The notes beneath the pieces were generated by a model. It was not told the DNA's origin. It saw only the letters and a program-made list of their open reading frames with translations, and ran no database searches. From Candidatus Altimarinota bacterium (GTDB taxonomy: Bacteria > Patescibacteriota > Gracilibacteria > BD1-5 > UBA2023), in assembly GCA_043756665.1 (NCBI GenBank), contig JAYUQR010000056.1, forward strand, positions 1 through 35,999: a stretch of 35,999 nucleotides of DNA. The letters are read 5' to 3'. Shown here piece by piece: positions 5,150 through 35,999 of this stretch (its first letter is position 1; every line of letters starts with the position of its first letter). Position numbers and translations under genes: made by a program.

Positions 5150-5653
5150 ATGAAATTTCCTATTCGTGGGTTTACCCTCGTCGAACTCATGATCGTTATC
5201 GCGATTATCGGCATCCTTGCCGCTGCCCTCTATCCAGCGATCACGAACTATATCGGACGATGAAGAGATGCACAGAGAGTAGCGCATCTCAAGGATATAG
5301 GAACGGCATTGACGAACTTTGCGAGTGATAATAAAGAAGACTATCCTGCCACTCTGGCTGATTGTGACCTCTCCGGTTCCCTTATGGTATTTCTGAATAA
5401 AGAACTCAAGGACCCTTTTCCAACGAGAAATCATGGATGTGGTCCGAATGGATTTTATGGATATGGTACAGGGGTGATCAATGTGACGCAATATTATGGT
5501 GTCAGTGCTGATCTCGAGACAGAGTATGGTGGATACTGGGCTGCATCGGGCTCGAATAATCCATTTACGGGAACACTTGATGCAGGGGATATCAATAACC
5601 TGAAGTTCAATCTCTGAAAAGGGAAAGGTCCACTGTATGTACTGTCTCAGTAG
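5150..5653 (+). CDS. Type IV pilin / pseudopilin-like protein, paralog 3 (divergent)
   Basis: MKFPIRG|FTLVELMIVIAIIGILAAALYP. Joins track ORFs 5072-5263 and 5309-5617 through UGA at 5261-5263 and 5615-5617. Ends ...GPLYVLSQ, TAG 5651-5653. 167 aa. Confidence 0.8.
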
Positions 5654-9133: not shown

Positions 9134-9415
9134 ATGCGTATCGCATTACTTTCTATTGCCCTCATCACTCTCCTCTCTGCATGTACTGCACCGAGCAAGA
9201 CTCCAGTTGTACCAACTCCTGAGACAACTACAGTTACTGTCACAGATGTTCCTGCTCCAACTCCAATGCCTGTTCCTGAGCCTATGCCTGTACCAACTCC
9301 AACTCCTGTAACTGATGTAGCTCCAGCTCCAGCTCCAGCTCCAGCTCCAGCTCCAGCTCCAGCTCCAGCTCCAGCTCCAGCTCCAGCTCCAGCTCCAGCT
9401 CCAGCTGCGAAATAA
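9134..9415 (+). CDS. Lipoprotein with Pro/Thr-rich linker and (Ala-Pro)14 repeat
   Basis: MRIALLSIALITLLSAC is a signal peptide with lipobox LLSA|C. It is followed by TPVVPTPETTTVTVTDVPAPTPMPVPEP... and (AP)14. 93 aa. Terminator follows. Confidence 0.75.
   Translation: MRIALLSIALITLLSACTAPSKTPVVPTPETTTVTVTDVPAPTPMPVPEPMPVPTPTPVTDVAPAPAPAPAPAPAPAPAPAPAPAPAPAPAAK
9320..9406 (+). repeat. Hexanucleotide tandem repeat (gctcca) x14 plus a partial copy
   Basis: Perfect gctcca units from 9320 to 9403, then gct. In frame, encoding (Ala-Pro)14. Confidence 0.95.
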
Positions 9416-9456: not shown

Positions 9457-9484
9457 TTTGTATTTTTTCGTGATTTCGGATAAT

Positions 9485-12400
9485 ATGCAAGGGATAATAA
9501 CCTCTACGAAATATATGACAGGAATCAATACACCACAATGATTATCAGAATCTGTTGATAACAATACTTCTGGAAATAGAGTCAAGAAAAATATACTAGA
9601 ACTTCTCGAAGAATCAACAGAGGCGAGGGCATTTCGAGATTCTGCGAGTCAGGCAGATCTCCTCCAGAGACTCAAAAATAATCCGCACCTTGTTGCTGAA
9701 GAAATCCGATCAGAAATGAATGATAGACTCAGAAACAGTCATGATCAGTATAGAGATGATATGGTGGCAGAGATTCTCAAATCTGAAAATGCGAGCTCAT
9801 CCACAATACCTCAGTCTATAAAGAATATAACGGATGCGACGATCCTCGAAAAACTCAACATATTTCTCTTGAGCACGAAGTCCGCACAGGGTAAACTGAA
9901 AAATAAAGTACGATCCCTCTTTGCTGACGAAGTATTCGATAAGGACTCACCTAATGCTGCTGACAATCGTGAGGCACTTGATAACTGGATCGGACAGCAT
10001 AATGAAAGTGCAATCCGTAAATATCTCAGATCTCCAACACTTCTGAGAAAACATCTAAGGAGGGATTGTTTTCATGATACAATGGATTCTTTCCAAGATA
10101 GAAATTCTATGTATTTCTTCGAAAAACTCTGAATAAAATGGGAAACCCTCACAGAAACAGAGCAAAATCTATGCATAAGGCTCAGAACCAATACGGGAAT
10201 AGTGAAACCTTGAGCTCGATGAGGAATTATCAATGAGTTCAATCATCAAGATATTCGATGATACCTACGTATTATCGATAAGGCAACTTGTACAAGTGCT
10301 CAGAAACTCGAATCGAAGAAAGACCTTATCCGAGAGTTCCTTCCTACGACAACTCCACAATTTCTCGTAGAAATGTGAATAATAAATGAGCAACAAGCTC
10401 GAGAAAAAGTGAAAACTTGACTTGAGGCTATTCTCTGAGAATGATACTTCGAACTATGATCAGACGATGAGAAGCGTGAAAAACAGAGATTCCTGGAGGT
10501 ATCATATACAAAATGACAATATATCGAGATTCCTCTAGAGGAGTACTTATCTGATAATGATTTTATTGAAAGATTATTCGACGCCTCGATGCGCTCTACA
10601 ACGCCATTGACGAAAAATATGGCGAAAGATATGCAAGATATTGTAACTGGACTTCAAAATACTCAGTTTGATCTCTGAACTATGAAAATCACTCCAGATG
10701 CACGGGGATGATGGCATACGAGTTTCGTAGAAAATCTCACTCAACTCAAAGCGAAAGATCCTACAAAGCCACAAGTAAAAAATGCTCAGAATTTTCAGGA
10801 AGGATCATATATCCGCATCGGGCAAGATAGAAATGGAAAAAAAGAATATAGATACTTTCGTATAGCTAAGACTGATGTTCGGCTCTCTATGCCGTCAGAT
10901 ATCCAAGATAAAGATGGAAATAAGGTCAGTCACCGATGAATCACCATGGAGGACTGGTCAGGGGAAGGTGATGGTATGGTCATGCCAGGGAGGCAAAAAT
11001 GAGTCAATGACTGGCCTTATGCAAAACTCGCAACATTACTGAGTAAGCCTGGAGATGAAATCGAGATCATCACTGCTGATGAAATGCAATCCAGACGCAT
11101 ATCAAAGTGAGAGGATAAGATTAATACTACGTATTCGGTGAATGACGTCTATAATTCTATAGAAAAACTCGAAGATGCACTCTGATGGAAACCAGAAAAA
11201 TGATCCATCTATAGTACGAAAGATGTAAAATGAGGTTCTGATATCTTTATAGAGATATTGAGTATCGATCCTGAAAATGGAAAGATGATCATCTCCGATG
11301 GGATCGGTGATTTTCCAGTCAGTTTCGCGCAATTCTATGAGATAGCTACAGAGCTCAAACTCAGGGAAATCGGAAAGTATAAGACAGATACTGATATCAA
11401 TTCCATCATCCAAACCCTTGGTGATGGATTCAAGGATCTGTCTTTCGAAAGTGGGGGTATCTTCCAGACGGTTAAGGATCAGCATGGGCATAATAAAAAA
11501 ATCCGTATCAGTCACTTCATGAATGAGGATGGTGAAGGTATGTATTGTGATTCTCTCACTTCTGGATGAGCCCAGGTGTCATTTGGGAAAGTAGCAAAAA
11601 ATAAAAAGGGTGATGATTGGGGGGATATGAAGTGAAAAGCGAATCTCAAGGCGTTCTCGGGGAGTTCACGTACATTATCTATGGCAGGATTTCTGAATCA
11701 GATCAGAGACAATGGCTATAAACCCTATATGAACCCGAAGGAGAAGGGTGATGAAATCGATCATGAAGATCATCAGCTCCATAGTCATGGGACAGTATGG
11801 TGAAAGATCATGAACTGGACGAGTTTCTCAAATATCAGCAAGGCATTCGATCTCTATAAACATGCCTGGGAGCATAAGATGGAGAAGAATTCGAAATTTC
11901 AGGCAGCACGATTCGCCGATAAATATCTCACGAAACTCATGCCCGAGGGAATGCGTTATTCTCTGCGATCTGAGGCTGCAGGAGCACAAAATGAAGCCAT
12001 GGAATGAGTTCTCAAAATGCTCGAAGAGATGAATGGAAAAACCGCTCGACTCCATGTCCGAAATCATATCCTCCTCAATGATGACGCCAAATTCGAAGAA
12101 GTTCTCGCATGACTCCTCTATATATCGAAAAAAACGGGTCAACTCTATCCAGAAGAACTCTCCGATCTCAAGAACTCAAAGCTCTGGTTTACCAAGCTCG
12201 CAATCACTCAAGGGTATAGCACTCGATATTCTCGAAAACAGCTCATGCAAAAGTGTATCGAAAAAACTGATAAAGGTGCTGAAGATCCGAGTGCTATCTC
12301 GGAAATGGATCTCGTCGAGCGTCAACTCAAGTATTATGAAGGAATGAATTTCCGTATCCCTCCGAATATTGCTCCGAAATTCCCATGAGCCCTCGTAGAA

Positions 12401-13675
12401 GGGAGTAAATGAAATAAGGAAAAATGAGAACTTGAAGTGAATCAACGTTCCAATATCAGTCAGATGAACAAATATGCTCTTTCGAAGCTCAATGTGGGAG
12501 AGGGATGGAAGGCAATGGGGTGTATAGACAGACTTCATACAAAAAATGGAAGTCCTACTCAACTCAATGCAATTCCATTCACGCTCCTTATGTCAAATAT
12601 GCCTGAGTATCTGGGATCAGAGTTCCGTAAAGCACTTCACTCTGAATGAACTGGATCGAGAACATCGCATGCATTCAAATTCGGGAATGAGATGTCCCTT
12701 GTCAATACCTATCGTAGTGTCGTATGAATTGCAGCAGCGGAGGTGGCTCGGAGAACAAAAAATCCTTGAATTCTCTCCGAATTAGAGAAAATAGAAAAAC
12801 AAAGACATCATATCGGTGAAGAGAGTCATAGGAAAAAGACAGAAGATGATCAGAAAGATTGGATCAACTCTATCTATGATTTTTGGATGAAATATGGAGA
12901 TAAACTCCAGCCGATCCTCCAGATGAGTGATACTTTTATTGATGCAGAAACAGAGTTTGGGACTAATGACAGTACAAAAAATTTCTGCAAGACTTATAAA
13001 GATAGATTTGCAACTACAAGTGGTATGCAGAACAAACAATTATTAGAAAGTTGAGCAATATATACAAAAAATTCGAATGTTGCAGAAGGTAACATGGTTC
13101 CTGATCATACCCCGTTTGCATTTACGAATATGGTCAATGCTTCTTTTTCTGCTATATATTCTCAAAGTGGTATGATGGGTACTAGTCAGTCAAATTCAAC
13201 AGCTTATACTGAAATATTCGCACCATGAGTACTTGGTGCACTGTACAAGCTTCGTAATCTCTCAGAAGAAGATATACCGCCATGAATGAGTCTAGAAAAT
13301 GTTCAACGAAAACGATTCCAAGAATATTTTGCTGCTATTATGTATTATCTTCGTACAAAGTGAACAAACCCACCAGAAATTATGCTAGGTTGAGGCAAGG
13401 ACGGTAGACCAAAAATGAATTATATCATTGATTTGGAAGAGTATTGATTCAATTTGAAGTCATCGGACTTTGGATGAAAGTTTACTACGAAGCCAGCCTG
13501 AGCAGAAATCGAGCCAAATACACAGATACCGAATCCACTGGTAATTGATAGTAGAAATGATAGACTCCGCTGTGAAGAAATGTTTCAGAATTTTAGAATG
13601 ACAACAGCTCGAGTTACGGCAACAACAGCTCGAAATGTTTGAGATACATTTGATTATGAGTGATATTGAGGGTAA
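9485..13675 (+). CDS. Very large hypothetical protein (1396 aa), no family recognised
   Basis: Frame 2 is open from ATG 9485 to TAA 13673-13675 if UGA is read as sense; I verified this codon by codon over 10130-11260 and 12005-13675. It unites track ORFs 9716-10132, 11258-11569, 11810-12007 and 12437-12649. About 41 in-frame UGA by hand count and no in-frame TAA/TAG. No signal peptide or TM segment seen. Confidence 0.7.
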
Positions 13676-20916: not shown

Positions 20917-21918
20917 TTAGTGGTGTCCATGAGTATTATCATGGTGACTGACGGGAGGAATATGATCGTCATGACCATGATTCTGATTTTTGTGTGCATC
21001 ATGGCTAGGTGTATCATGGTGGCCATCTTCGGCATCTTCTTTTTTGCACCACATATATGCCTCATACCATGTTGCTTCGATAAATATTTCCAGTGTCGAA
21101 TTCAGGTGGACAATCACGAGGAAAAACAGGAGTGCGAGTATACCAAATACCGTGAGAAAGAAGAGCTTCAAACCCATGACACTAAAAAATGCGATAATAC
21201 TCGAAGCCAGAAATGGAAGGACGAGAAAAAAAAGTGCGACGATAATCGTACGAAGATAGAGGAGGATCATCGTATAATAGAGTTGGAGTGTGATATTGAT
21301 ATGACGTACTGCCATCCCGGTTGATGCAGCCAGTGCTGCTATAGTGGTCTTTCCCTCGAAAATGATGAACATTTTCGTATATGAAAAACACATGTTCAAA
21401 AAGAATGAAAAAATGAGATAGACAGCCATGATATACGAAATGGGTTCGAAATAGTTATTTCCGAATATTCGCAAAAGAAGGATATATGATGTGATGATGG
21501 CAAGTGGTCGAAACACCGCCACGACATTGTGTGCTTCAAAGAGGGGGAGAAAGTGTCGAAAACCGTCAAAAATTCACTGAAAGGTGCGGTGATATTTTTT
21601 TCCATCACTTTTTCGATACGAGTGTATCATTTCTATGAGTCCTCATTCTGCGAGAGGAGCTATGAGCATATAGAGAAGGAAAATACAACCCAGTCCGATC
21701 AGAACCTCGAAGAAATAGTCTTTGTGTACAAAATTCGCCAGAGCTTCGAAAAATTGATCCTTTTTCTTAAATATGATAACATATGTAAAGGTTACCTGAT
21801 AGAGAAGAATGAGAAACAACCAAAGCATCCCTATAAGTGAAGGGATAAAATTCAGTTTCTTGAGCGAATGAAATCGCGTGATGAGCTCCCATGCGGAGAG
21901 AACGATCGATTCTTTCAT
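20917..21918 (-). CDS. Polytopic membrane protein with His-rich C-terminal tail
   Basis: Joins track ORFs 21643-21918 and 20917-21522 (same frame) through UGA at 21643-21645 and 21574-21576. Multiple hydrophobic segments. The tail is EDGHHDTPSHDAHKNQNHGHDDHIPPVSHHDNTHGHH. 333 aa. Confidence 0.6.
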
Positions 21919-21939: not shown

Positions 21940-24078
21940 CTAGGGAAATGGCTGACTCCAGATCCATCCGAAGAATGAGAAGAATCATTTCCCCGTCATA
22001 TTCAGCATATAGACGTCTTTGATGCTCGCAGTAGCGAGGACTGTATGGAGTGTAGAGATATCCTGAAAAATCGGTACCTGTTTGATTCACTTCAGATTCT
22101 TATCGATATAGAGACTATGGATGGGACTCGAGAGCGGGATGAAAAATGCTTCAGATTCTATGTATCCGATAATATCATTTTGTATTTGGATAGTTTTCTC
22201 TTTGGTTCCTGCTATGCGGAGCTCGGCAAAGAGAGCATCGAGTTTTTTACTTTCGATTTTGGAGAAATTGATACCATTTTTTGCTTCTGTTGAGAGGAAT
22301 ACCTGACCCGCACGCGAGAGACGACCATTTGCCTCGAATCCTATGATGATCATATCATAGTTCTTATTTCATGACTCGAGCATTTTCTGAAGATCTTTTG
22401 TGGAAATGGGAACCAGTTTACTTCGTATACTGAGGTTTTCGAGTGCACTTACCACAGACTTTGCGTATTTTTCGAGTGTTTGAGGATCATCCTTATATGC
22501 TATAGTGAGCTCAAATGGGAGATTTTTCTCATTAAAATAATAACGTGGATCAAGGAGCTTGAGCTCTTCTTTCTTTTTCTCATTTATTTTCTTTCTCTGG
22601 GCTATCTTTTCTGGAACATTTATCTCACTCAGAAATGCCGAGTCGATACTCTCTCGAATGGATATGAGAGAACCAGAGTCTGTAGAGTAATAGATTGTCA
22701 GAATATCTTTTGATGCTCTACTTCATACCAGATCTTCTGTTGATAGTGAGTATGTATTCTTTCATTCCTTGAGTGTCCCATTGACTACACTTACCCGATA
22801 CCCGAATTTCGTATTTCCAGCACGGTATTCTTGGAGTTCGTAGTCATTAATAAATACTTTTTGCGTATTTTGCGGGATATTTCCTGAGAGGAGGATTTCA
22901 CCTTGTGCGATTTCTGTAAAGAATATTTTTTTATTCGTCGGGAGAGTGAAATATTGGTTCGTACCATAGTTGATACTCGATCCAGTGAGGAGTCACGTAT
23001 TTTGATTGAGAATAGCTATAGACTCATCGGGTTTCCAGTATCACCGAGATCGCATCATATCACTCAGTGATTTCTCCAGTTTGATTCCTGTTCCATTGCG
23101 TTCGATTCAGAATATATTTTTCACAGGAAGCTCGCTCTTGTCGATACTGCCTGAAAATACCTCCACGAGTTTTCCATAGAGTTGTTGACGTACTTCCCGA
23201 GTGAGGGTATCAGTATTCATAAACAGTGAGATATATTCATACATCGTATATGTATATCCATCGAATCGAGGTCAGAGTAAGAGCTTTTCATTTTTTACTG
23301 GCGGGATAATCACACTCAGATTATCTGTACTGCGTTCGAGTGATACGAGATCAGGGAAAAATAAAAAATGGTATTTATCGAGCCATCATTGTCCGCCATT
23401 TTTCTCATCACGCTCGATGGTAACACGATCATATCCATACTCGGTATTTTTCTCTCGTTTACTGAAAGTATATGGTCATGACGTGATATACCCATCTGCA
23501 CTGATTCGTCCGGTCTTGATCCGTTCGAGCATATCTGAGCGTACGATCGGATAGGTCATGAGATCGAGGATCATCGAATTTTTCTCCTTTGATGTGATTT
23601 CTATTTTTCCATCGGCCCTGGAGATCACACTGACTCCTTTCAGAAAATTTCACATCTTATCCCCGACAGTTATAGCACGAAATGTCTGGTATGTCGCAAT
23701 GATATCTTCTGTCTGTATTCTTGTTCCATCTGACCAGAACTGGTCTTTTTTGATCTCACAGATAATCTTCGAGAGATCCCGGATATCACAATTCCCGATA
23801 TCACCCTGATATTCACCACTGAGGGCATCATAGGTGATCATGGGCCTATAGAGGAACCGGAGGATCATATCATGATACTTGTCTTTCGTATATGCGAGTG
23901 GATTCGGGACCTCTGGTGCAGTTCAGACGATCCCTATATTGATGCTCCCACCACGCTCACCCACAGACATACCTCCTTCATATATATAGACTCAGATGAG
24001 GTGTGTGAGGAATATCAGGCCAATGATGGAGGCAAAAAAAATTATTTTTCTGCGAAGTGTACTATAGTTCAGTTTCAT
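21940..24078 (-). CDS. Extracellular solute-binding protein, family 5 (peptide/nickel ABC type), N-terminally anchored
   Basis: ATG 24078, TAG 21940-21942, 712 aa, about 14 in-frame UGA. N-terminal hydrophobic anchor IIFFASIIGLIFLTHLI. LRFLYRPMITYD...CEIKKDQFWSDGTRIQTEDIIATYQ resembles the SBP_bac_5 core (l..l..yd....f.Lr.gvkwsDG.p.ta.Dv..s). Unites track ORFs 23650-23868 and 22087-22353. Confidence 0.7.
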
Positions 24079-24147
24079 AATGGTGAATCTTCTCAAAGGA
24101 CTATTTCTGGTTAGAAATAAGTAAAGTATTGAGAGATTTCAGGTGTT

Positions 24148-24378
24148 TTATCCGATAAAAAAAGCGAACATAGATGCAGCAATAAATAAGGATATAACCC
24201 CAATCGTGAGAGTATGGAGGATCTTTTCTGGACCACGTCTCTCGAATTTCCCAAAATCATTCGAATTCGGGACAATAGAGAGACCTGAACCTTTCGCTTG
24301 GATCATAACCAGGAGGATAACAGAAACGGAGAGAATAGAGAGGAGGATTGTCATAAAAATATTGATAAAATCGCACAT
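24148..24378 (-). CDS. secG: Preprotein translocase subunit SecG
   Basis: 76 aa with two TM segments: ...ILLSILSVSVILLVMIQAKGSGLS...FGKFERRGPEKILHTLTIGVISLFIAASMFAFF. This is the typical SecG pattern (LlQ.gKG.Gl......rg....L.k.T). Confidence 0.75.
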   Translation of the reverse strand: MCDFINIFMTILLSILSVSVILLVMIQAKGSGLSIVPNSNDFGKFERRGPEKILHTLTIGVISLFIAASMFAFFIG

Positions 24379-24383
24379 ATACT

Positions 24384-24854
24384 ATGAAATTTTCCACTTT
24401 TTGCAAATTTTTGGCTTTTTTCATAATATATGGTATGCTTCTCGTATCTTTTCTTATCCTTATGTTCCGTATATTCTCCATCATATTGTTGAGTTTGACT
24501 CCTCTGGTTATGCAGTCATATGCTGCATGTAATAATGACCTCACGAAGTCTGATTTTACTATCTGTACTGGACTCCTGAATCCACTTCCTGGAGCAGGTG
24601 AAGGTTCTGATGCCAAGTGAGTCGGGGCACTTCTCTATATCCTGGGGAAGATCGCAGATATGCTCCTCTTCGCTATCCCCCTGATCGCCGGGATTTCCCT
24701 CATCATCGCAGGGTACTACTATATCCTCTCGAGTGGAAATACTGAGAAGGCGACTCAGGCAAAGGTGATTATCAAGTGGAATATCGTCGCTATGCTCGTC
24801 GCATTTCTCTCCTATACCATGGTGAATCTCGTTCTCTATATTCTGAAACTCTAA
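24384..24854 (+). CDS. TrbC/VirB2-like T4SS-pilin-family small membrane protein, paralog 1
   Basis: Joins track ORFs 24384-24620 and 24660-24854 through UGA 24618-24620. N-terminal signal/TM, then ...LLFAIPLIAGISLIIAGYYYILSSGNTEKATQAKVIIKWNIVAMLVAFLSYTMVNLVL. This is a two-TM hairpin with a conserved S-G-x-x-E-K-x-x-x-A-K loop. The start could also be an internal Met, since ATG 24384 is only 5 nt from the divergent secG ATG. Confidence 0.65.
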
Positions 24855-24857
24855 TCA

Positions 24858-25205
24858 ATGTTTATGAAAAGATTCTTCTTCGCATCCTTTATCATATTGT
24901 TCTATATCGAGCAGTGTGTCGCCCTATACGATCTCAAGCTTCCCGAAGGGATAACTTCGAATCAGATCGTAGAAGTGAAGAATCCGATGACATTTCTCTG
25001 AAATCTCATCGCTTATGCGATCGGTATTGCAGGAGTCCTCGCTGTGATCGGTGTGACTTGGTGAGGCATACAGATGATCCTCTCATCGGGTGAAGATGAG
25101 AAGATGAAGAAGGCACGATATATCCTGATCTACTCACTGATCGGTGTCCTCGTCGCAGGTCTCGCATATGGAGTCGTCGATGTTGTATCGAGATTTAGAT
25201 TCTAA
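24858..25205 (+). CDS. TrbC/VirB2-like T4SS-pilin-family small membrane protein, paralog 2
   Basis: MFMKRFFFASFIILFYIEQCVA (signal)...FL(G)NLIAYAIGIAGVLAVIGVTW(G)GIQMILSSGEDEKMKKARYILIYSLIGVLVAGLAYGVVDVV. 115 aa. TAA 25203-25205. Missing from the track as a single ORF because of two UGA codons. Confidence 0.75.
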
Positions 25206-25213
25206 TACTTTCT

Positions 25214-25543
25214 ATGAAATACCTCCTTTCCCTTATCGTACTCATCCCAATACATCTCTTTGCTGTTCCGAGTACTGAGATCTCACCAGAGGGTGGGCTC
25301 GGTCTTGCTGGATGGACCCTGAGTCGATTCCTCTCGTATGCTGAGGAATTTCTCCTCAAGGCAGTCCTTCCGATTACAGTCGTCGGAGTAGCACTCTATG
25401 TCGGATATCATCTCGTCACGGCTGAGTGAGATGAAGAAAAGATGAAAAAAGCATTCAAATCCCTTACCTACTCCTCTATCGGACTCATTGCTGTTGCTTG
25501 TGCGTATGCATTTGTCCGAGTGATCGCGAGCCTCTCTCTCTAA
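25214..25543 (+). CDS. TrbC/VirB2-like T4SS-pilin-family small membrane protein, paralog 3
   Basis: MKYLLSLIVLIPIHLFAV (signal)...AVLPITVVGVALYVGYHLVTAE(G)DEEKMKKAFKSLTYSSIGLIAVACAYAFV. UGA 25427-25429 aligns with GGT 25088-25090 of paralog 2. 109 aa. Confidence 0.75.
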
Positions 25544-25553
25544 TTTTTTTTCT

Positions 25554-25973
25554 ATGAAGTGACTCTTCTCCTGTATTCTTCTGTGCATATCCTCAATTTT
25601 CTTTGTATCGAATATTTTTGCAGCTCCTATTGGTTGTAATATAGAGAAAATCAATGCTGGGACATTCTTGAAAAACTGTGGAGCTGGTACTGCTTGAATC
25701 CAGCCAGGTGGTGGTGATGGAAAATCAGGAGTAAAAGAACGAGTCAAGACAATAGCAGAAACGGCTATAGCGTTCGGAGCACTCCTCGCCGTTGCCATGC
25801 TCGTCTGGTCAGGAATACAGTATACGATCACGTATGGTGAGGATGAGAAGATCAAACATGCGAAAACGACAGCTGTCTATGCTCTGATCGGACTGATTCT
25901 GATGATGGCATCATTTTGACTCGTGGATGTCTTTCTGAGCTTTATATTCACTGCCTGAAGTTGAGGTAAATAA
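25554..25973 (+). CDS. TrbC/VirB2-like T4SS-pilin-family small membrane protein, paralog 4
   Basis: MK(G)LFSCILLCISSIFFVSNIFA (signal)...AIAFGALLAVAMLVWSGIQYTITYGEDEKIKHAKTTAVYALIGLILMMASF. 139 aa, five UGA, TAA 25971-25973. The 190-aa minus-strand ORF 25283-25855 is its antisense shadow. Confidence 0.7.
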
Positions 25974-25984
25974 TTGACCGATCT

Positions 25985-26659
25985 ATGCGTTACCTCGCCA
26001 TTCTCCTCTTTGCGATGATATCTCTTTCTCCTGTTTTTGCAGGGAAGGGGTATATCGTGAATACGATTGGGAGTTCTCAGAATAGTGTTTCTCGGAAGAA
26101 ACTCATCCAGGAAGTACTCGATACTAAAGTGATGACTTTCCAGTATAGTGCCCTCTCCATCCTCATCGATGCGAATCAGGTTGAACCGAGAGGGAAGATG
26201 CAGTGACACACTATCACTCTCTCTGCTACAATAGCAAAAGAGAGTGAGTTTCTCAAGCTCCTCATCCATGAGCTCGGACACTATGTGGATATCTATTTTC
26301 TCATCACCAATTCCCTTAAGTCAGATGCTTCCAGTAGATTCTATGATATTAGTTGGGTCGATATTTCGACGAAGAGGTCCAATGAAACGCTCACGAGTTT
26401 TGTTTCTGGATACGCATCCTCGAATAGGTATGAGGATTTTGCTGAGTCTTTTGTATTCTATATATTTCATAATCGAGAATTCGCAGATAGGGCTATGAAG
26501 AATGATTCCCTGAGACAAAAGTATCTTTTTCTCTCTGAAAATATTTTTCCAGACTGAAATTTTATTGATACTGATTTCCGTATTGGGAAAATGCCGAACT
26601 ATCTCTGGGATACGACGAAAATCCCGATATCAGTAAAAAAATATTTGTATTCTCTCTAA
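25985..26659 (+). CDS. Secreted HExxH protein (putative zinc metallopeptidase)
   Basis: MRYLAILLFAMISLSPVFA (signal). HELGH at 26267-26281. Downstream YEDFAESF could supply the third ligand. Joins track ORFs 25985-26206 and 26285-26557 through two UGA codons. TAA 26657-26659. 224 aa. Confidence 0.65.
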
Positions 26660-26873
26660 TACTTCATATAATAGAGTTTATTATTGGTATATATATCTCT
26701 GTGAATGATATTCTTAGAGATTTGTCGATCAAATCCAAAAAATTGCTCTGCGTATATTACATGGAATGGTTCTCTTCGAGAGAAGGACATTTCCACGATA
26801 CTGTATCTAGAGAAATTATTCTGGTCTAACCCAATCTTTCACGAGATTTTTATATTCTTTCCTGTCAATATTT

Positions 26874-28118
26874 ATGTGACTTATTTTTGGTGATACTGAT
26901 GATATTCTGTTCTGATGAACTCCTCTCCCTCGCGAAGATGTTCGAGAGAAATTTCCCCCATCTCCGACTCGAGTACACTCACCCTTGCCTGTTCGGACTC
27001 CGTCCGTAGTTTCATCTCCTGTGTCACAACCGCCCCTCCAGAGAAGAGCTTCTCCTGTTCAACAAGCTCCAGCTCCTATTCCACGAGAGATCGAGGGCTG
27101 ACTCCGCAAACTGGTAGAATCGATGAAATCTACATTTTTTCCTCAGGGGAACGACGACTCTCTGAGGGTATCGATTCTCTCAGCTTCCACGATACGAGAT
27201 CCATTTATTATCCTTCGATCTTCTGAGGGGACACTCTTGTTCGGTACAGGATTCTCTCAGGTCTCTGCTTGAGGAAAAAGCTATCCATCATTCCCAGATA
27301 TGAGACTTCCCTATAGTGAAAAAGACCGATTGACAGGGTGGGTTCTTCTCGAGACTGGATTCGCCATAGCCCCATTTCAGATGATTCTCGAATTACTCGG
27401 ATTCCCTCATGTATATGCAACAAGAGAAGTTATTGCGTATATTCGTGATACCATAAAAGATAGTGTTTTTCTCGATCGATGTCGATTCTTTGAGCTTTTT
27501 TCTCCAGGTATCTCCGATCGGAAAATAGGGGAGTACCTCCTTGAAGATATATCTTGAGGTATCATGCTGTCTGCGTGAACGAATGGATTTTTCCTCCCAA
27601 AATCCGGGATAGTCCAATCGACTCAATCGGGCATGACACTCATACAAACCGATTCTGGATATAGCTTTGTATGAGCTGATACCCTTGCATTTGTTTCTGG
27701 AGAGATCATCGATCTCCTGAAGACAAAGGCATCGAAACATTCTCTCAAATTTACTTTTGATACATTTTATATCGATAAAAATTCTATTGGCGTCGCTGCA
27801 GGATACACTCTCTGAGATCGTGAAATCCTTGCTGAAAATGGTGTACTTACCTTTGTCATCGAAGAAGATGTCCGTGCACGAGCGATTATCTGACATATTT
27901 TTATCGATTCTCGTGGATTCGTCCACTCGCATGAGATGATGACAGTTCACAAGGAGATCCTGAAATGAATCCGCTATACCTATGAACAGACTATACTTGC
28001 GAATAATCGCATCGAACGATCAGAACTTGTTCATATGCTCCGTCGTGAACTCACGAAATATTGCTATCTCGTAACCGGGAGAACCCCGGTCGTGATGCCA
28101 GTGATTATAGAAAGGTAG
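26874..28118 (+). CDS. RNase J-like paralog lacking the metallo-beta-lactamase His motif and the beta-CASP domain
   Basis: Frame 0, open with UGA as sense, contains track ORF 27300-27557. It aligns to the canonical rnj downstream: DSLRVSILSA / ETLRVIPFGG; TLLFGTGF / MIIVDMGIQF; WVLLETGFAIAP (27342-27374) replaces ITHGHIDHIG; PHVYATREVIAYIR / TPLYATPMAYELIK. The C-terminal domain is canonical: GVLTFVIEED...IFIDSRGFVHSHE...LRRELTKYCYLVTGRTPVVMPVIIER. TAG 28116-28118. The start is ATG 26874 (Pro-rich extension) or ATG 27123. Minus-strand ORF 27393-27950 is an antisense shadow. Confidence 0.6.
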
Positions 28119-28254: not shown

Positions 28255-30120
28255 ATGCGCAACAAACGCTTTCAAAGTAATACCGGAAATCCTCCGAGTA
28301 AATCAGGATCCCCTCGAAGTTTTTTCGACTGAGGAAAAAAAATTCAAAGCAATCTCCGTCCTGGGGATGCATTTCTCTATGAGGATTCATTTAAGCCAAA
28401 ACGATCCTACCCATTTCTCACACCGACTCAGGCACTCAAGAAATACCTCTGAGAAAAAGAAGAGCGTACCAAGCCACTGGGTAAAGAAACCCTCCGTGTC
28501 ATACCATTCGGTGGTATGGAACAAGTCGGACTCAACTGTATGGGATTCGAGTATGAGGATGAGATGATCATCGTCGATATGGGGATCCAGTTTCCCGATC
28601 AGTACCAGTTCGGTATCAACTCCTCCATCCCCGACCTCTCCTACTGTCGTGGAAAGAAAGTGGTATGAGCCTGTATCACCCACGGACATATCGATCATAT
28701 CGGATGAGTCTATTACCTCATGGAACAGCTCGGGCGGAGTACTCCACTCTATGCCACTCCTATGGCATATGAACTCATCAAGCTCAAGCAAGCAGATATG
28801 GGTGCTACTCTCCCGAATATCCGCGAATATACTCGCTATGAGCCGATCCAGATCGGGAAATATTTCCAGATCACACCGTTTGTGGTCGATCACTCGATCC
28901 CTGACTCAGTCGGACTCCTCATCGAGACTCCGGTTGGGAGATTTGTCCATACGGGTGACTGGAAATTCGATAAGTCTCCACTTCCGAACCGCCCATCCAC
29001 GAACTATGAGTACCTCGAGACCCTCGGAAAACGTGGGGTTCGTGCCCTCTTTTCTGACTCAACCAATGCACATCTCCTCGGTTCCTCTATCTCTGAATCT
29101 GCCGTCGTCCACTCGATGGAGGATATCTTCGAGAAGGCATCAGGACGCGTGATCACGGCAACTTTCTCCTCGATCATCGATCGTGTCATGCTCATCATCT
29201 CGACCGCTGAGAAATACAACCGAAAAATCGTCCTCCTCGGTCGATCGATGAATAACTATATCGATATCGCGATCAAGCTCGGCTATGTCCGACCAAAACC
29301 TGGAACGATCATCACCATGGAAGATGCAGCGAGACTCCCTGATAACCAAGTCACTATCTGTTGTACTGGAGCACAAGGAGAACGTTATGCAGCGCTGATG
29401 CGTATCGTCACGGGTGAGTCTCGAGACACCACACTGAAGGCCGATGATACGATCATATTCTCATCGTCAGTGATCCCTGGGAATGAGCGCGCAGTGCAGT
29501 GACTCTTCGACCTTATCACTCAGCAGTGACCGAAGATCCACCACTACAAGGAGTCAGAGATCCATGCTGGATGACATGCGAAGGAAGAGGATACCAAAAA
29601 AATGATCACCCTCATCCAGCCTGAGTACTATATTCCTATCTATGGATATACCCATATGCTCCGTGGAAATACACGAAATGCCTATGATCTCGGATATGCG
29701 AAAGATAAGGTTATCGTGATGAAAAATGGAAAAATCCTCGAGTTTACGAAAGATGAAGTGCGAGAAACGGATGAATATGTTTCGAAGAAGCTCATGACTG
29801 TCGATGGACGGATGGTTGGGTATACGGCAGAACGAGAACTCCATGATCGATTCCAGATCTCATCTCAGTGAGTCCTCGTTATCGGTATCGTGAAGAAAAA
29901 TGCCGGTTTCGCCATCAAGTATCAGACGGTCGGACTCCCGAGTGTTGATAAGGTACCGACACTTGAAAAATCTCTCGAAATGAGTATAAAGGATATACTC
30001 CGTGATCTCTCGAAGTTCAAGGATGCAGAATCATTCGTCACTCACGTCGAACGCAAAGCGTGCGATATCTGTCTCTATGAGATCGGGAAAGAACCGAAGG
30101 TAGTCGTGATAGTACAGTAA
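28255..30120 (+). CDS. rnj: Ribonuclease J
   Basis: Frame 1 joins track ORFs 28720-29502, 29602-29871 and 29890-30120 plus the N-terminal part. LRVIPFGGMEQVGLNCMGFEY..MIIVDMGIQFP; ITHGHIDHIG(G); HSIPDS; HTGDWKFD; LFSDSTNA; TFSSIIDR; GAQGE; SVIPGNE; IHAG(G)HA; PIYGYTHM. 621 aa including a basic ~80-aa N-terminal extension. Confidence 0.9.
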
Positions 30121-30780: not shown

Positions 30781-30893
30781 TTGTTTCAATGTACAATTTA
30801 CAAATAATAAATTACAATTTCCGGATTGTTCACTATACATTGTTCACTGTTCATTGTTTTTGGGGGTATAGCTCAGTGGTTAGAGCAGTCGGC

Positions 30894-31256
30894 TTAAGGA
30901 TTTTTTTCTAAATCAAGCTCAGGATAATGTTCTTCTGCATGACAATTATGACAAAGGAGTATGCAGGATCTTAACTCATTTTCAATACGTTCGAATGTTC
31001 TATTCGAAAGGGATCGAACATCGAGTTTGAATTCTTTTTTCTGAGGGTCAGTGTGATGAAATGATAATGCACCAAGATTCTTCTTGTATCTGCATCTCAT
31101 GCATCAACCTCAGAAACGCTCAATAAGTTCACGTTTTCTTTTGAATCCTCGAGCTTTCTGAGATGGGTAACTCTGATGTTTCTTGTTTTTGCAGATGATC
31201 GAACAGAATAATTTCTGTTTTCCTGAAAGGATATTTCAGCATATGATACATTTCAT
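30894..31256 (-). CDS. HNH homing endonuclease encoded antisense within the intron
   Basis: ATG 31256: MKCIIC(G)NILSGKQKLFCSIICKNKK (zinc ribbon)...(G)G(G)CMRCRYKK...LSFHHTDPQKKEFKLD...ENELRSCILLCHNCHAEEH (HNH motif). 120 aa, three in-frame UGA. The TAA stop (complement of 30894-30896) abuts the 5' splice site. Confidence 0.8.
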
Positions 31257-31487
31257 AACTGAAAATATAGTAAGATATGAAAAATTTGCAAGGGCGGTTA
31301 TGAGAGTAATCTCATAATGTTTATCTGTCAAATTCGGGGAAACCTTCATCTCAATCGAGATATGGCAATCCCGAGCCAAGCCTGTAATAAGGAAGGTGTA
31401 GAGACTAGATGGCAGACATCCTGAAAAGGATGAAGGGATAGTCCAGACTCCAAACTCGAAAGGGGTAGTGAAAACTATAGCAGTACG
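30895..31487 (+). mobile_element. Group I intron (IC3-like, Azoarcus/cyanobacterial tRNA-intron type) in the anticodon loop, 593 nt
   Basis: The 5' exon ends in U and the intron ends in G (31487). The core at 31320-31487 contains gtcaaattcggggaaacc, tatggcaatcccgagccaagcc and gaaggtgtagagactagatggca. As I recall them, these match the conserved J3/4-P4, P6 and J6/7-P7 segments of the Azoarcus tRNA-Ile intron. P2-like hairpin ttatgaga-gtaa-tctcataa and P8-like hairpin atcct-gaaa-aggat. I could not identify P1/IGS. Confidence 0.75.
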
Positions 31488-33141
31488 CATAACCGATTGG
31501 TCCCTGGTTCAAGTCCAGGTACCCCCACCATAATGTAAATCATTCAGTAAGAGCATCAGTTTTAATGTAACTGATGCTCTTTTCTGTTAGTTCCAACGTA
31601 AAAATATACCCATGTTGTAATTTATTGAACTCTATAAACGGCAAAAACCAATCATGAAGATTGGCTTGCAGTTTCTGATCCATTAATATCCAGTTCCAAC
31701 CAAGAGAACGAAAAATCATTTTCTTGGTTTCTAGATCTCAATCTCTGAATCTTTCGGAAGCATATTTTGAGAAATTGATAGTATCTATGATGAGTTCAGT
31801 CCAGTCTATATTTTCTTTTTCTATCTCAGTTTTTCGTATTTGTAGTAATTCTATTTCTTTTTCTAGCTCTAGCCTCATTCTATCATATTCTTTATAGTTA
31901 CTCTCGAACTCTCAAGCGAGCCTCATGTGTAAGAGTCTCGTTTTTTTCTTTTCAGCAGATTCAAGAGTATTTGTAATGTTTGTTTTTATACTTTCCCTGC
32001 CAGTAGATTCCTCACTATATTTTCGCTTGAGTACTTCTTTTGACCAGTTGAAGAACTCTGGAATGATTTCAATCTCACTTAGAATTTCTTCTATTTGTTT
32101 TTCAACTCATTCGTTTGAGACAACTTTCCTTTGATCGCAATGAAATTCAGTTGTATTTTTTTTGTGTGTGCAGTGGTAATATGTGTATTCTTTCTCTTTT
32201 CCAGTAGAACGTATGTTCTTGTACTTCTTGACTGCTGTAACCATACAACCACAGCATCAGCAACGAATATTCCCAGTATAGGGGAATGTTAATATAGAAG
32301 GCCTTTCTCTATATACCTTATTTGGAGATCCACTTGTATGAGAGATGAGCTTTTGAGCTTTCTCGAATTCTTCCCATGTAATCATAGGCTCGTGAGATCA
32401 CTTGATTGTATTTTTATTATACTTCATGTATCCTGTATAGAAAGGATTCCTGAACATTGCATATAGTGTAGATATTGCGAGTTCTCTACGAGCCTTATAT
32501 TTTACATTTACTGTGGAGTATCACCACTCCGTATTGGCAGTATGTGCTATCTGAGAAGGAGCATAACATCATGTGAGTAGCATATCCCACATCTTTCTTA
32601 CCAACTGGAACTTTTCTGGATCAGAAGCAATAGTTCTTGTAATAGGGTCATTAATATAGCCTTGAGGCGCCTTTGCAGGAAAGTGACCTTTCTCAATCTT
32701 ACTTTTGAGTCATCTTCTTACATTTTTAGAGAGATCAAGAATATACTGATTTGCCATACCTGTTTCAACGCTGAAGATGAGTCATGAATCTTCGGGATGA
32801 TACACTCTATCGCTTGTTATAATTCGCTTTATTTTGTGCCTCTGAAGCATATATTGAACACTTCCTGCATCTACTGGGTTACGAGTAAGTCTATCAAGCT
32901 TCCAACAGAGAATACCATCAATGCTTCATTCTTCTATTTCAGCACACATTTCATAGAATGCTTTCCTTACTCACGGAGCCTTTGCTGATTTTTCTTCAGT
33001 GTAGATTTTCACAATTTCTATGCCATCTTCGACTGCTTTCCTTTTCCAGTATGTAATCTGGTCATCAATTGACTGAACTTGTCTATCTTCTCTTTCAGAA
33101 GACTTCCGTGCATAAAGCACAAATCGGGTAGCTTTTTCCAT
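31405..33141 (-). CDS. Large serine recombinase (resolvase domain, recombinase domain, zinc ribbon, coiled coil)
   Basis: ATG 33141: MEKATRFVLYARKSSEREDRQVQSIDDQ (catalytic Ser region)...IDGILCWKLDRLTRN...GHFPAKAPQGY...AMFRNPFYTGYM...GNIRC(G)CCGCMV...YYHCTHKK...FHC, then a coiled coil. I verified every codon. There are 11 internal UGA codons. A 12th UGA at 31540-31542 is the only stop-like codon before the tRNA. The first in-frame TAA/TAG is TAG 31405-31407, so the code-25 ORF is 578 aa, or 533 aa if it ends at that UGA. Confidence 0.8.
31549..31584 (+). terminator. Rho-independent terminator of the split tRNA
   Basis: aagagcatcagtt (31549-31561) / aactgatgctctt (31569-31581) form a 13-bp perfect stem, followed by tttt. 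Confidence 0.65.
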
Positions 33142-33201
33142 AATAAAATTGTTAAGTAATGTAAAGTAATATATAAGGTACTATTGATAAGTACATAATA
33201 T

Positions 33202-35340
33202 TTATGTAAGTCAAACATCAGCTATCGGGCTTATATGCATATTTCTTCAAATATTTTCTATAGTGATGAGTCCAGCATTAGCGAGAGTTGGCTCTATTTC
33301 TTGTCTCCAAAGAGCATCCGACATTGGTCTACCATAAACTTCACTATGTTTTTGTATAATTTTCTTGCGGGTGACTCATATTGCATCCTCTGGTCAGAAA
33401 TAATCTTCCCTTTGCTTGTTGTACTCTATGTAGGCAGGAACAAGTATCTCCATATACAATCGCATTGTATATGGAGATACATTGAACTTTTGACCAGGAG
33501 AGATCTTCTGCCATAGGCTCCATGCTTCCTCAATATCGGTATCTTCGGCATATAAAGTTGCTCATGTTCTTTTTCGATGAGGGAGATTAAGGAGAGCGAA
33601 AGCTCTAATGAATCACATGAATCGGTCTATGTCTCGTTGGTCCCGAGGTATACAGCCCTGTTTTCATTTTCACTCCAGAAAGAATCGATCTACTTTCTCA
33701 GGATCGAGAAAGTCTATATCGTCTATATTGGCATCTTTTATATGCTGAATTCTTTCTTTGAGAATATTTCTTTCAGGATCATTTATAATTGATTCTTTTA
33801 GCTTTTTATCTGCACCACTAAGTCTAATTTTATGCTGGACAGTATCATAGATCTTCTCGCTATGAGTTTCGGGAGAGATAAGTAGAAAACGAGTTGCTTC
33901 TTGTTCATCGAGTTGTGTCGATGCTGTACAGAATACAGCTACAGGATATCCATAAATAATAATGTTTTTTGTTTGGTTTCATCATTGACCACTTTTATCT
34001 GTTATTTTACAGGTCAGAATTGGTTTATCATGTGAGAGAAGAGGCCTTAATTTTCAAAGAAGTTCTGTTCTAGGCTGATCAATAAATATGATAATTTTTC
34101 TATCGAGATGTATGTGTTTCTCATTTTTCTCTTTATCATACTCTCCATTTTCATGGAAGAACGCACTTTGAGATACATAAAGTAATTCCATAAGACTATC
34201 TTTTGGGAAAAGTTGAGCTATCTGTAAGGGTATGTATGATTTACCAGATGAAGACGGAGCATTTAGCATTATATTTATCTGTGAGTCCCTCGTAAATGCT
34301 GTAAGCATAGCCAGAAATACGATTAATTTATTCGTGTCATCATGTTTAATAGTAAGTGAAAGTATTCTTATAATGTCTACACTCGTCATCGGAGCAAATT
34401 TTGATGAATCTGTACCCCGTATGAGCTCACTATATAAAGTCATCATTTCATCGCTAGTTCCACCATTTTTTATAAAGTCAGACACATCTTTCCCCATTTC
34501 TAGTGGAAGTGAGATTCTATATATCTCTTTTTCAGGAAAACGAGCAATAAGTCGGTCAATAAGTCTAGTGGCTCATTTATTTCAGGCATCATCATTATCA
34601 AAACAGATATATATTTTAGAGAGCGATGCAAGACTCTCTAACCATTCTTCTTTGAATGTTCCTACTCATCCCGTAGAGCTTATTCACATAAGTCCCTCCC
34701 GAGAAAGTATCATCTGATCGAATTCTCACTCGCAGATCACTATATAATCATCATTATTTTGCATGTTTTCTCATCCATAGAGCATCGTTTCGTTTCAAGA
34801 TGGGTAAAATATATACTTATTTCCTTCCGATCAGTAGGGGTCACGTCTGAGCTTAAAAAATTGAAATACTCATTTTATATCTCGAATTGGTATTGTTATC
34901 CAGTTTGATCCATAGAAAGAGCCATATCCGATTTGCCTTTCTTTTATGAGTTCTTCCGTAATACCTCGTTCATTCAAGTATTCACGGATGTTTGGTGGTA
35001 ATGACTTCTGATACTTTGAGATATCCTTTTCTGTTAGAGTTATCTTCTTTTTTTGGACTTCTGGATTTCTTGGACTCTTCGGATTTGTGTATCATTCAAG
35101 TGGATATTCTCAAGGATCATCTCAAAAATGTTTGAGAAGCGTGATCCAGTTTCATTGTGCGAGACATTTTTTGCACTGGTAGAGTCCTGTAGACTCTTCG
35201 ATATAAAGATGAGCTTCCTTGCCTCGACTGTCTTTGTCGCATTCATTGAATACGCAATGTGCTGCAATTTCTTTGCCAGTCTTATAGTGAAAGATTCATT
35301 TTTTATCCAAATAAGTGGGGATCGTTGTAGTAGGTAACAT
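33202..35340 (-). CDS. Primase-helicase: CHC2 zinc finger, TOPRIM primase and P-loop NTPase fusion
   Basis: ATG 35340, TAA 33202-33204, 712 aa, every codon checked, 25 in-frame UGA. Zinc finger AAHCVFNECDKDS...LYQCKKCLAQ(G)NW. TOPRIM IVICE(G)EFDQMIL...YICFDNDDA(G)NK(G)A, with UGA on the invariant Gly of EGxxD and DxDxAG. Walker A MLNAPSSSGKSY and Walker B-like KIIIFIDQP. Contains track ORF 34054-34497. Track ORFs 35040-35267 and 35053-35337 are out-of-frame or antisense shadows. Confidence 0.85.
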
Positions 35341-35357
35341 AAAAGTAGTAATTAAAT

Positions 35358-35498
35358 TTATAAAATGGAACGAGAGACAGTTTCCATCAGTAGAATGAGT
35401 TTAACGGCTTGTTCATGAGCATCTTCAGTACTGATTTCGACTTGAAATAAGCTCTTGTAAATGCTTTGATATTCGCGGATGTCTTGCTCGGTTAACAT
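35358..35498 (-). CDS. Small protein (46 aa), hypothetical, upstream of the primase-helicase
   Basis: ATG 35498: MLTEQDIREYQSIYKSLFQVEISTEDAHEQAVKLILLMETVSRSIL. TAA is the complement of 35358-35360. Same strand as the primase gene and 17 nt upstream of it. Confidence 0.35.
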   Translation of the reverse strand: MLTEQDIREYQSIYKSLFQVEISTEDAHEQAVKLILLMETVSRSIL

Positions 35499-35514
35499 AC
35501 TAGTAGAAACAAAA

Positions 35515-35551
35515 ATAGGTACCAACAACTTAGCTAAGTGTTGATACCTAT
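35515..35551. repeat. 37-nt imperfect palindrome (operator / recombination-site candidate)
   Basis: The arm ataggtaccaac (35515-35526) pairs with gttgatacctat (35540-35551) with one mismatch. Between them is the perfect 12-nt palindrome acttagctaagt (35528-35539). The element lies 17 nt upstream of the small ORF start. Confidence 0.6.
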
Positions 35552-35625
35552 TATATTCTGTCTTGGTTTTTACGACACCTCCCGAATGACTCCTTTTTGT
35601 CGCTAAATTATCGCTATTGATGTTT

Positions 35626-35647
35626 TATATATCCAATATATATCCAA
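35626..35647 (+). repeat. Exact 11-nt tandem direct repeat tatatatccaa x2 (iteron-like)
   Basis: Copies at 35626-35636 and 35637-35647, followed by ccaa-ctcatc-ttgg and an A/T tract. Confidence 0.6.
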
Positions 35648-35999
35648 CTCATCTTGGTTTGATATATTTTTTTATTTCTGGGTTTAGTTTATTCCGTATT
35701 TTCTGACAATATCTTCAAGAAGTCTCATTAGACCTTCATTTTGATATATATGTTTTGATATTCTCATAGTCGCATATCACTCATCTATTTTCATATAAAA
35801 TCTTCAAGAGCCTATACTGAGTGGTTGCTATTGATAAAGCATCCTCAATCACAATTCAATCAAAATAAATTTTTCATCAAAGGGTATCAAAAAAGAATCA
35901 TGATGGTATTCGAGGTGTTGTCCGAATAGAATCTTCTTTTTTCTCATTTCGGTTGAGTTTATTTTTCTCTTCAAGAAGACTTCAAATAGATGATTCGGT

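Follow-up and report, generated by a model that had tools for sequence, protein, structure and literature searches.

A conserved array of four VirB2-like pilin genes with an adjoining secreted metallopeptidase gene in a Gracilibacteria-type genome

The window analyzed here is the whole of contig JAYUQR010000056.1 (35,999 bp, 41% G+C) from an uncultivated bacterium of the Gracilibacteria type. It carries four small tandem genes (g1-g4) that are predicted from their sequences to encode members of the VirB2-like T4SS_pilin family, each with a signal peptide and a two-helix hairpin, followed by a gene (g5) for a secreted HExxH zinc metallopeptidase. With moderate confidence, we read the locus as a chromosomal operon of four old, non-interchangeable VirB2-like paralogs and a co-transcribed secreted zinc endopeptidase, the pilins of which would form a heteromeric fibre by way of a type IV secretion system (T4SS). 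Three features of the locus appear to be new. These are the fixed set of four paralogs, whose positional orthology is complete and speaks for heteromeric assembly and against a variation model, the M34-like secreted peptidase that is attached to the set throughout the clade, and the co-conserved, divergently oriented block encoding SecG, an SBP_bac_5-like protein and a membrane protein. No description of the four-gene set with its protease partner was found in the literature searched.

Pilin arrays of this kind are already known in the Patescibacteria, and one of them is essential in one cultured species. In a recent study, Quinonero-Coronel et al. (2025, PMC12102498) applied PF18895 and PF04956 to 3,035 Patescibacteria genomes and determined that VirB2-like pilins are present in 1,948 VirB4-positive assemblies and lie near virB4 in only 1,135. 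The same study recorded 441 arrays in 383 assemblies, with 2-11 pilin genes and ~25% identity between paralogs, which were read as a device for variation or host range, and found that in Gracilibacteria the T4SS parts are dispersed and VirB6 is not detectable. In Southlakia epibionticum, the T4SS cluster contains a pilin array that Wang et al. (2023, PMC10633639) determined to be essential for epibiotic growth. This essentiality is also described in a 2025 review (PMC12857230), according to which the Patescibacteria have the only monoderm T4SSs with VirB2-like pilins. An earlier sequence-only reading of this contig had implied that the array was a novelty, but papers of 2023 and 2025 (PMC10633639, PMC12102498) had already described such arrays, many of them away from virB4; an HExxH peptidase tied to the arrays is mentioned neither in these two papers nor in the review. 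T4SS components, including a pilin array, are essential for epibiotic growth in the only Patescibacterium that has been genetically tested. The locus described here is a clean case, with four subunits in constant order, each separately conserved, and a secreted protease attached. It makes testable which subunit is the major one, whether the four co-assemble, and whether the protease targets the pilins or the host surface.

The five genes g1-g5 all lie on the forward strand, each running from ATG to TAA, with intergenic gaps of 3, 8, 10, and 11 nt (Table 1). This agrees with the sequence-only reading, as does the position of the secreted 224-aa HELGH protein 11 nt after g4. The reading frame that had been given for g1 also holds, but its start at 24384 is the less likely one. 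Translation of g1 probably begins at Met27 (ATG at 24462) because from there the protein has a canonical 21-aa signal peptide (MFRIFSIILLSLTPLVMQSYA, cleaved before AC), its N-terminus agrees with those of the orthologs, and 107 nt are left between g1 and the start of the divergent secG. The signal peptide, two-helix hairpin and conserved loop that had been proposed were found in all four small proteins. By hydropathy and sequence, each has a signal-peptide-like segment at the N-terminus (judged by eye with the -3/-1 rule) and two hydrophobic helices at the C-terminus, and in the alignment the interhelix loop reads G-[DEN]-x-E-K, with the G, E, K, and a following A invariant in all four pilins. 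The AlphaFold2 model of g2 (11 sequences, predicted local distance difference test score (pLDDT) of 69) consists of a signal-peptide helix (2-23), a disordered linker, and a hairpin of two helices (43-75 and 79-112). A proline is kept in most of 16 aligned pilins, and conserved motifs stand within the otherwise variable linker of each pilin. A promoter and terminator scan of positions 23900-27100 returned 9 promoter-type sites, where 7.8 were expected from shuffled sequence, and no terminators. Since no excess was seen, the operon structure is drawn only from spacing and strand.

The family assignment comes from profile searches. For PF18895 (T4SS_pilin, gathering threshold 26.6 bits), scores of 41.2 bits (E=1.8e-10), 34.1 bits, and 35.6 bits were obtained with g2, g3, and g4, respectively, all above the threshold, while g1 scored 24.7 bits, slightly under it; g1 orthologs are annotated with PF18895. 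As sequence matches, these scores are far beyond chance. The architecture had been likened to that of the T4SS_pilin and the TrbC/VirB2 families; similarity to the first is borne out, direct membership in the second is not, as the best score for PF04956 (threshold 27.9 bits) is the 13.6 bits of g2 (E=0.08). One g2 ortholog (P0126) has a precomputed PF04956 match. Like the array proteins, the TrbC/VirB2 conjugative pilins (T-pilus, RP4, F-type) have a signal peptide, two hydrophobic helices, a short charged loop, and a length of 70-110 aa after cleavage. The array differs from them, apart from its score, in having no adjacent VirB3/VirB4 and no cyclase or TraF-type maturation gene. Its C-termini also stop right after helix 2, so that signals for C-terminal processing or cyclisation are not evident. 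The NCBIfam model NF045849 (the Mbov_0395 family, pilin-like proteins of Mycoplasma integrative and conjugative elements) gave weak but consistent matches to all four paralogs (18.8-28.4 bits, g3 highest), under its cutoff of 40 bits; it stands for pilin-like proteins of a wall-less relative of the monoderm (FATA) T4SS lineage. The array, unlike these, is not on a mobile element. Minor weak Pfam matches to holin, DUF350, and DctQ were also seen among the pilins.

The conservation of the array was examined in one genome per GTDB species. A g5 relative was found in 182 genomes, and the best 80 loci, all labelled Gracilibacteria, Peribacteria or Patescibacteria, were taken. A hidden Markov model (HMM) built from 16 pilins was run on the six-frame open reading frames (ORFs) of these loci under code 25, and the count covered the 75 loci in which the upstream sequence was 2.2 kb or longer. 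In 57 of the 75 species loci the HExxH gene is immediately preceded on its own strand by four pilin ORFs, in 13 by three, and in 5 by none. All three of the inspected loci with three detected pilins have a fourth secreted hairpin protein of 142 aa that scores below the threshold. No matches to the pilin HMM were found elsewhere in those species loci. The array is therefore directly upstream of the peptidase homolog in 70 of the 75, and the same layout (SecG on the reverse strand, four pilins, HExxH, RNase J) is present in three metagenome contigs with g5 homologs of 41-60% identity and in two more divergent ones, one of which encodes a 331-aa anchored peptidase in a standard-code genome. The linkage of peptidase and pilins in relatives, which the earlier reading had put forward for checking, is thus conserved in the species loci and in 5 independent metagenome contexts.

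The four genes are not equivalent to one another. In the 59 loci with four detected pilins, the best cross-genome match lies at the same array position for 236 of 236 pilins, and for g1 it is position 1 in all 59 loci. Mean core identity in these loci is 42.8% between pilins at the same position, 24.1% between pilins at different positions, and 24.5% between paralogs within a genome. The highest paralog identity within any genome is 41%, and within the window the paralogs are 20-29% identical over their full length. Ahead of helix 1, the pilins of each array position also share a conserved motif of their own, such as D-[IL]-T-x-x-x-F-x-I-x-L-x-x-[ML]-[DN]-P at position 1 and a Cys...Cys pair with G-T-x-G-I-[DQN]-P at position 4. 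Because of the positional matches and the position-specific motifs, the four genes are taken to be ancient, ordered, and individually constrained, and sequence comparison favours a heteromeric set that is fixed over one that varies. The known Patescibacteria arrays (Ca. Southlakia epibionticum ML1 and the TM7x 'Sec secreted array') resemble this one in their PF18895 matches, tandem small genes, ~25% paralog identity, monoderm ultrasmall host, frequent position away from virB4, and lack of a relaxase context. The array described here differs in its fixed four genes with strict positional orthology, in never being near virB4 within the clade, in the M34-like peptidase gene that follows and the SecG/SBP_bac_5-like/membrane-protein block that precedes it, and in the use of UGA for glycine.

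The fifth gene is predicted, from sequence and from its structural model, to encode an intact extracytoplasmic gluzincin endopeptidase of the M34/Mx1 type. Its signal peptide is MRYLAILLFAMISLSPVFA, followed by G, with cleavage between VFA and G. The pattern of the M34 type is present, with HExxH followed by Tyr and Glu ~45-55 residues downstream, and H95, E96, H99, Y143, and E154 do not vary among 78 aligned g5 homologs, in at least 90% of which E150 is kept as well. There are 124 close homologs, nearly all of ~225 aa, and the few that are named are labelled Gracilibacteria. The AlphaFold2 model of g5 has a pLDDT of 92.4 and a predicted template-modelling score (pTM) of 0.86. The AlphaFold2 inputs (P0001 and P0121) were the same proteins with W at UGA codons, P0121 having one further substitution. 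The best matches to the g5 model in a Foldseek search were the catalytic domain of anthrax lethal factor (4pkw), at E=5.7e-4, and PPEP-3, a Pro-Pro endopeptidase, at E=0.012; each had a probability of 1.00 but a TM-score of only ~0.45-0.49. In a phmmer alignment of g5 with the lethal factor core (2l0r_A, E=0.01), HELGH aligns with HEFGH and Y-A-S-S-N-R-Y-E-D-F-A-E with Y-G-R-T-N-E-A-E-F-F-A-E; the aligned lethal factor positions are those that we take to be the catalytic Tyr728 and the zinc ligand Glu735.

Profile scores for g5 lie just under the Pfam thresholds. They are 23.8 bits for Peptidase_Mx1 (PF15890, threshold 25.6), 22.9 bits for Peptidase_Mx, and 21.5 bits for ATLF (PF07737, threshold 27.4). 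Many g5 orthologs have a precomputed PF15890 or PF15887 match. The MEROPS M34 enzymes (anthrax lethal factor and PPEP-1/-2/-3), which share HExxH, Tyr, and Glu in the same spacing, provide the best structural matches to g5, although the ATLF score and the TM-scores are low; the PPEPs are also small and secreted. Pro-Pro endopeptidases cut surface proteins that are encoded by neighbouring genes. The Peptidase_Mx1/TIGR04549 proteins of the Bacteroidota ('substrate import-associated zinc metallohydrolase lipoprotein'; PDB 9urd and 4l7a) share with g5 the core HExxH ... F-V-[ST]-x-Y-A ... E-D-F-x-E, and a weak profile match to 9urd_A was obtained (E=0.017). They are, in contrast, lipoproteins of diderm outer-membrane import systems, and g5 scores 33.2 bits against the TIGR04549 cutoff of 75.

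According to the reading that we favour, Sec would insert each pilin and the signal peptide would be removed, leaving the pilin as a membrane hairpin with its charged loop in the cytoplasm. Extraction and assembly would then be carried out by a FATA-type Patescibacterial T4SS (VirB4 and its partners) whose genes would lie in another part of the genome. What results would be a heteromeric fibre or conduit at the cell surface, with a fixed role for each subunit, for instance a major one and others that are minor or form the tip or base, and with the distinct N-terminal extensions exposed. The peptidase would act outside the cytoplasm at the same surface. Its likeliest substrates would be surface proteins of the host or prey, or of the cell itself, at the contact site, and next to these the N-terminal linkers of the adjacent pilins.

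Several observations weigh against this reading. No Patescibacterium has been observed to form a fibre from these proteins, and the PF04956 threshold is not reached by any of the four paralogs. When the g2 model was compared with PDB entries by fold, the matches were all designed or generic helical hairpins (E>0.9), and a profile search of the pilins against PDB chains matched no solved pilin; as these searches were uninformative, the VirB2-like assignment draws on the curated family and the architecture and not on structural comparison. No VirB4 gene was found among the credible ORFs of the contig, which is the whole of the window. The entire block of membrane protein, SBP_bac_5-like protein, SecG, array, HExxH protein, and RNase J is syntenic, and adjacency alone is for this reason a weak argument for joint action of peptidase and pilins. 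In all five pilin-less loci, an RNase J-type gene still lies just downstream of the HExxH gene. Their HExxH homologs are 287-296 aa long (loci L046, L052, L055, L077, and L083), and the four forms of 287-288 aa are clearly anchored at the N-terminus. In place of pilins, the HExxH gene of these loci comes after a gene for a putative helicase-type protein of ~1,000 aa (Mfd/TRCF by eye), a putative secreted protein of 458 aa, a putative ELP3-like protein or a putative large surface protein. Since the pilin-less loci keep RNase J next to HExxH, a neighbourhood with no obvious functional reason can persist in this lineage. At E<=1e-3 the wider HExxH family comprises 1,378 representative clusters, the majority of 280-320 aa and with extra N-terminal sequence, and the members of this larger family that were inspected carry an N-terminal membrane anchor. 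A pilin-type ORF lies within 6 kb in just one of 80 metagenome loci with distant homologs, and these loci have no recurring neighbour.

The peptidase-pilin link is therefore weaker than the counts first suggest. The HExxH family is basically one of stand-alone ectopeptidases that became attached to a pilin operon in one clade, and in the clade with the array the membrane anchor is predicted to be exchanged for a cleavable signal peptide. It is unlikely, in our view, that the HExxH protein is a dedicated pilin maturase that trims the N-terminal linkers after signal-peptide removal, in analogy to the Pro-Pro endopeptidases and their neighbour-encoded substrates. The same-strand linkage in 70 of the 75 loci with the 11-nt gap between g4 and g5, the M34/PPEP-like fold, and the proline kept in most aligned pilins and the conserved motifs in every pilin's variable linker would all suit such an enzyme. 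The distant family members that stand alone argue against an obligate maturase, as do the five loci that retain the peptidase without pilins and the absence of such a peptidase from those published array descriptions of other Patescibacteria that were consulted, and the position-specific linker motifs suggest that the linkers are kept in the mature pilin. A serious possibility, which falls somewhat short of being probable, is that the peptidase is independent of the pilins, a surface or secreted protease acting on host/prey or environmental proteins, perhaps for peptide uptake, with its adjacency an inherited synteny. The size of the family and its lack of conserved neighbours outside the clade fit this well. 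So do its nearest curated relatives, which are the substrate import-associated lipoproteins, the SBP_bac_5-like protein nearby, and the equally conserved RNase J-type neighbour on the other side, which has no obvious functional tie. An independent peptidase would leave the short gaps and shared strand, retained down to ~40% identity, and the replacement of the anchor by a cleavable signal peptide in the array clade to be accounted for, and there are no peptide permease genes nearby.

The remaining alternatives concern the pilins. That the four paralogs are interchangeable and serve variation or host range, as has been proposed for the VirB2 arrays of Bartonella and Anaplasma, seems very unlikely for this clade. 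Those tandem VirB2 paralogs, which are thought to serve antigenic or host variation, resemble the array in being several diverged genes in a row; the low identity between the paralogs would agree with such a device, and it is the interpretation offered in PMC12102498. Here, however, fixed roles are suggested by the separate conservation of every paralog: the positional matches, fixed order, and position-specific motifs extend over 59 species, copy number is constant at four, and neither recent duplication nor gene conversion is apparent from within-genome identity. The Bartonella-derived 'antigenic variation' explanation does not fit this clade's array, and of the 'heteromeric or variable' fibre that had been suggested only the heteromeric part is upheld. 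It is also rather improbable that the four proteins are not fibre subunits at all but small membrane proteins of a translocon or of the SecG/SBP_bac_5-like/polytopic block that work independently of a T4SS. The lack of T4SS genes within ~6 kb in ~80 relatives, the co-conserved divergent three-gene block, and the generic hairpin fold with its weak holin, DUF350, and DctQ matches are in line with such a role. PF18895, however, occurs beside virB4 in >1,100 Patescibacteria assemblies and in the essential Southlakia T4SS cluster, one g2 ortholog has the precomputed PF04956 match, and the upstream block may itself be plain synteny. A more ambitious version of the favoured reading, which we regard as quite unlikely, is a four-subunit contact fibre or conduit that is matured or remodelled by its own M34-like protease, from an operon that is uncoupled from the T4SS or works without one, together with the SecG/SBP_bac_5-like/membrane-protein block. 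If true, it would be the first VirB2-type fibre with several subunits and a dependence on a protease, and it would be found in a monoderm.

The genes of the window have to be read with an altered genetic code. ORFs of at least 100 aa sum to 35,432 aa under codes 4/25 and to 10,830 aa under code 11; as long ORFs are confined to codes 4/25, UGA has to be read as sense. Greedy longest-ORF calling under code 25 gave many shadow ORFs, and genes were hand-picked and checked with Pfam. The base pairs G1:C72, C2:G71, and G3:C70 together with U73 are identity elements of bacterial tRNA-Gly. They are found in a tRNA with a UCA anticodon (Table 1), named tRNA-SeC by ARAGORN on the basis of the anticodon only, and glycine identity elements on such a tRNA mean that the code is code 25 (UGA=Gly), of which this tRNA is, by its sequence features, the defining decoder. 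A 23S rRNA intervening-sequence protein (1278-1649, reverse strand) adjoins this tRNA-Gly(UCA). All five array genes contain in-frame TGA codons, 1-5 apiece. Public protein calls for this lineage often place W at UGA, in the style of code 4, instead of G, and the database versions of the pilins and the peptidase are consequently mistranslated at 1-5 positions each. Unless read with code 25, the array genes are thus mistranslated (W for G) or truncated. The four genes had been described as invisible or truncated in standard-code annotation; truncation under code 11 is seen, but they are not invisible, as public calls recover them, with W at UGA and with PF18895.

The array is flanked by SecG upstream and two RNase J-type genes downstream, as had been reported. 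The secG gene is directly upstream on the opposite strand in 70 of the 70 pilin-bearing species loci with enough upstream sequence, the SBP_bac_5-like protein accompanies the array in all 70 loci and the polytopic membrane protein in 68, and RNase J-type genes are downstream in most species loci. The upstream block may be functionally linked to the array, or it may be mere synteny. In the relatives L004, L066, and L071 the tandem RNase J-type pair appears as a single gene. A Pfam search of the polytopic membrane protein at E up to 10 gave no family (best YukC, 13 bits), and the idea that it is a VirB6 missed by the published Gracilibacteria searches was dropped for lack of Pfam support. Farther upstream, past the membrane protein, are NifU (reverse strand), then SufS and a TPR protein (forward strand) and QueA (reverse strand).

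The statement that no VirB4, VirB6 or VirD4 genes lie in the flanks can be extended to the whole contig, since a Pfam scan found none among its credible ORFs of at least ~100 aa. Among ORFs of at least 300 aa, the Walker A motif occurs only in an AAA_14 ATPase and a primase-helicase. In ~80 relatives, T4SS genes were likewise not found within ~6 kb of the array. None of the eight largest unexplained near-array ORFs in relatives belongs to a T4SS ATPase family by Pfam; they are ATP synthase beta, RNase R, a glycosyltransferase/deacetylase, a type IV pilus (T4P)-like lectin protein, and four proteins without a Pfam match. The metagenome-assembled genomes that carry the loci L058 and L048 are VirB4-positive in Table S1 of PMC12102498.

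Table 1. Coordinates of the array genes, their neighbours, and the UGA-decoding tRNA in the window.
Feature	Position	Strand	Description
g1, array position 1, T4SS_pilin-like	24384..24854	(+)	156 aa, or 130 aa from ATG 24462; one in-frame TGA
g2, array position 2, T4SS_pilin paralog	24858..25205	(+)	115 aa; two in-frame TGA
g3, array position 3, T4SS_pilin paralog	25214..25543	(+)	109 aa; one in-frame TGA
g4, array position 4, T4SS_pilin paralog	25554..25973	(+)	139 aa; five in-frame TGA
g5, HExxH zinc metallopeptidase, secreted (predicted)	25985..26659	(+)	224 aa; signal peptide and HELGH motif
secG	24148..24354	(-)	PF03840, 34.9 bits; divergent from array
SBP_bac_5-like membrane-anchored protein	21940..24078	(-)	712 aa; PF00496, 48 bits, residues 103-290
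Polytopic membrane protein	20917..21918	(-)	333 aa; ~6 transmembrane helices, His-rich tail; no family
RNase_J_C-only protein	26874-28118	(+)	RNase J-type, downstream of g5; Pro-rich N-terminal region of no known family
RNase J	28255-30117	(+)	In tandem with the preceding RNase_J_C-only gene
tRNA with UCA anticodon	1692-1770	(-)	G1:C72, C2:G71, G3:C70 acceptor stem; U73 discriminator

The right end of the window holds what is probably an integrated element. Positions 31405-35999 (reverse strand) encode a large serine recombinase (Resolvase, Recombinase, and Zn ribbon), a Toprim primase-helicase, and a winged-helix regulator. This block comes directly after a split tRNA and a tRNA-Ser(GCU), and the recombinase ORF continues over the antisense tRNA. 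A Resolvase gene is also found downstream of RNase J in the relatives L001 and L002. That the array is part of this mobile element was considered and rejected, as the RNase J genes and a tRNA lie between the two and the array is chromosomal and syntenic in ~70 species. The split tRNA (~30862-31537, forward strand) is interrupted in the anticodon loop by a group I intron of ~590 nt, with an Rfam RF00028 match of 78.9 bits at 31277-31468 inside it. Its 5' half begins with GGGGGTATAGCTCAGTGG at 30862 and its 3' half ends with GGTTCAAGTCCAGGTACCCCCACCA; it was not called by ARAGORN, and its anticodon is probably CAU or UAU.

Other genes of the window lie farther from the array. Three tandem T4P (N_methyl) pilin genes on the forward strand (3747-4259, 4591-5097, and ~5150-5650), the first two with a near-identical N-terminal half, are unrelated to the T4SS_pilin array. 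A forward-strand ORF at 9458-13675 encodes a 1,405-aa protein with no Pfam match, Walker A motif, hydrophobic segment or signal peptide, which by these sequence features is a large orphan protein, predicted to be cytoplasmic or non-classically exported. An ORF for a lipoprotein-like protein with a long (Ala-Pro)n tail is found at ~9140-9415 (forward strand), and an EarP-like (EF-P rhamnosyltransferase) protein is encoded at 7802-8806 on the same strand.

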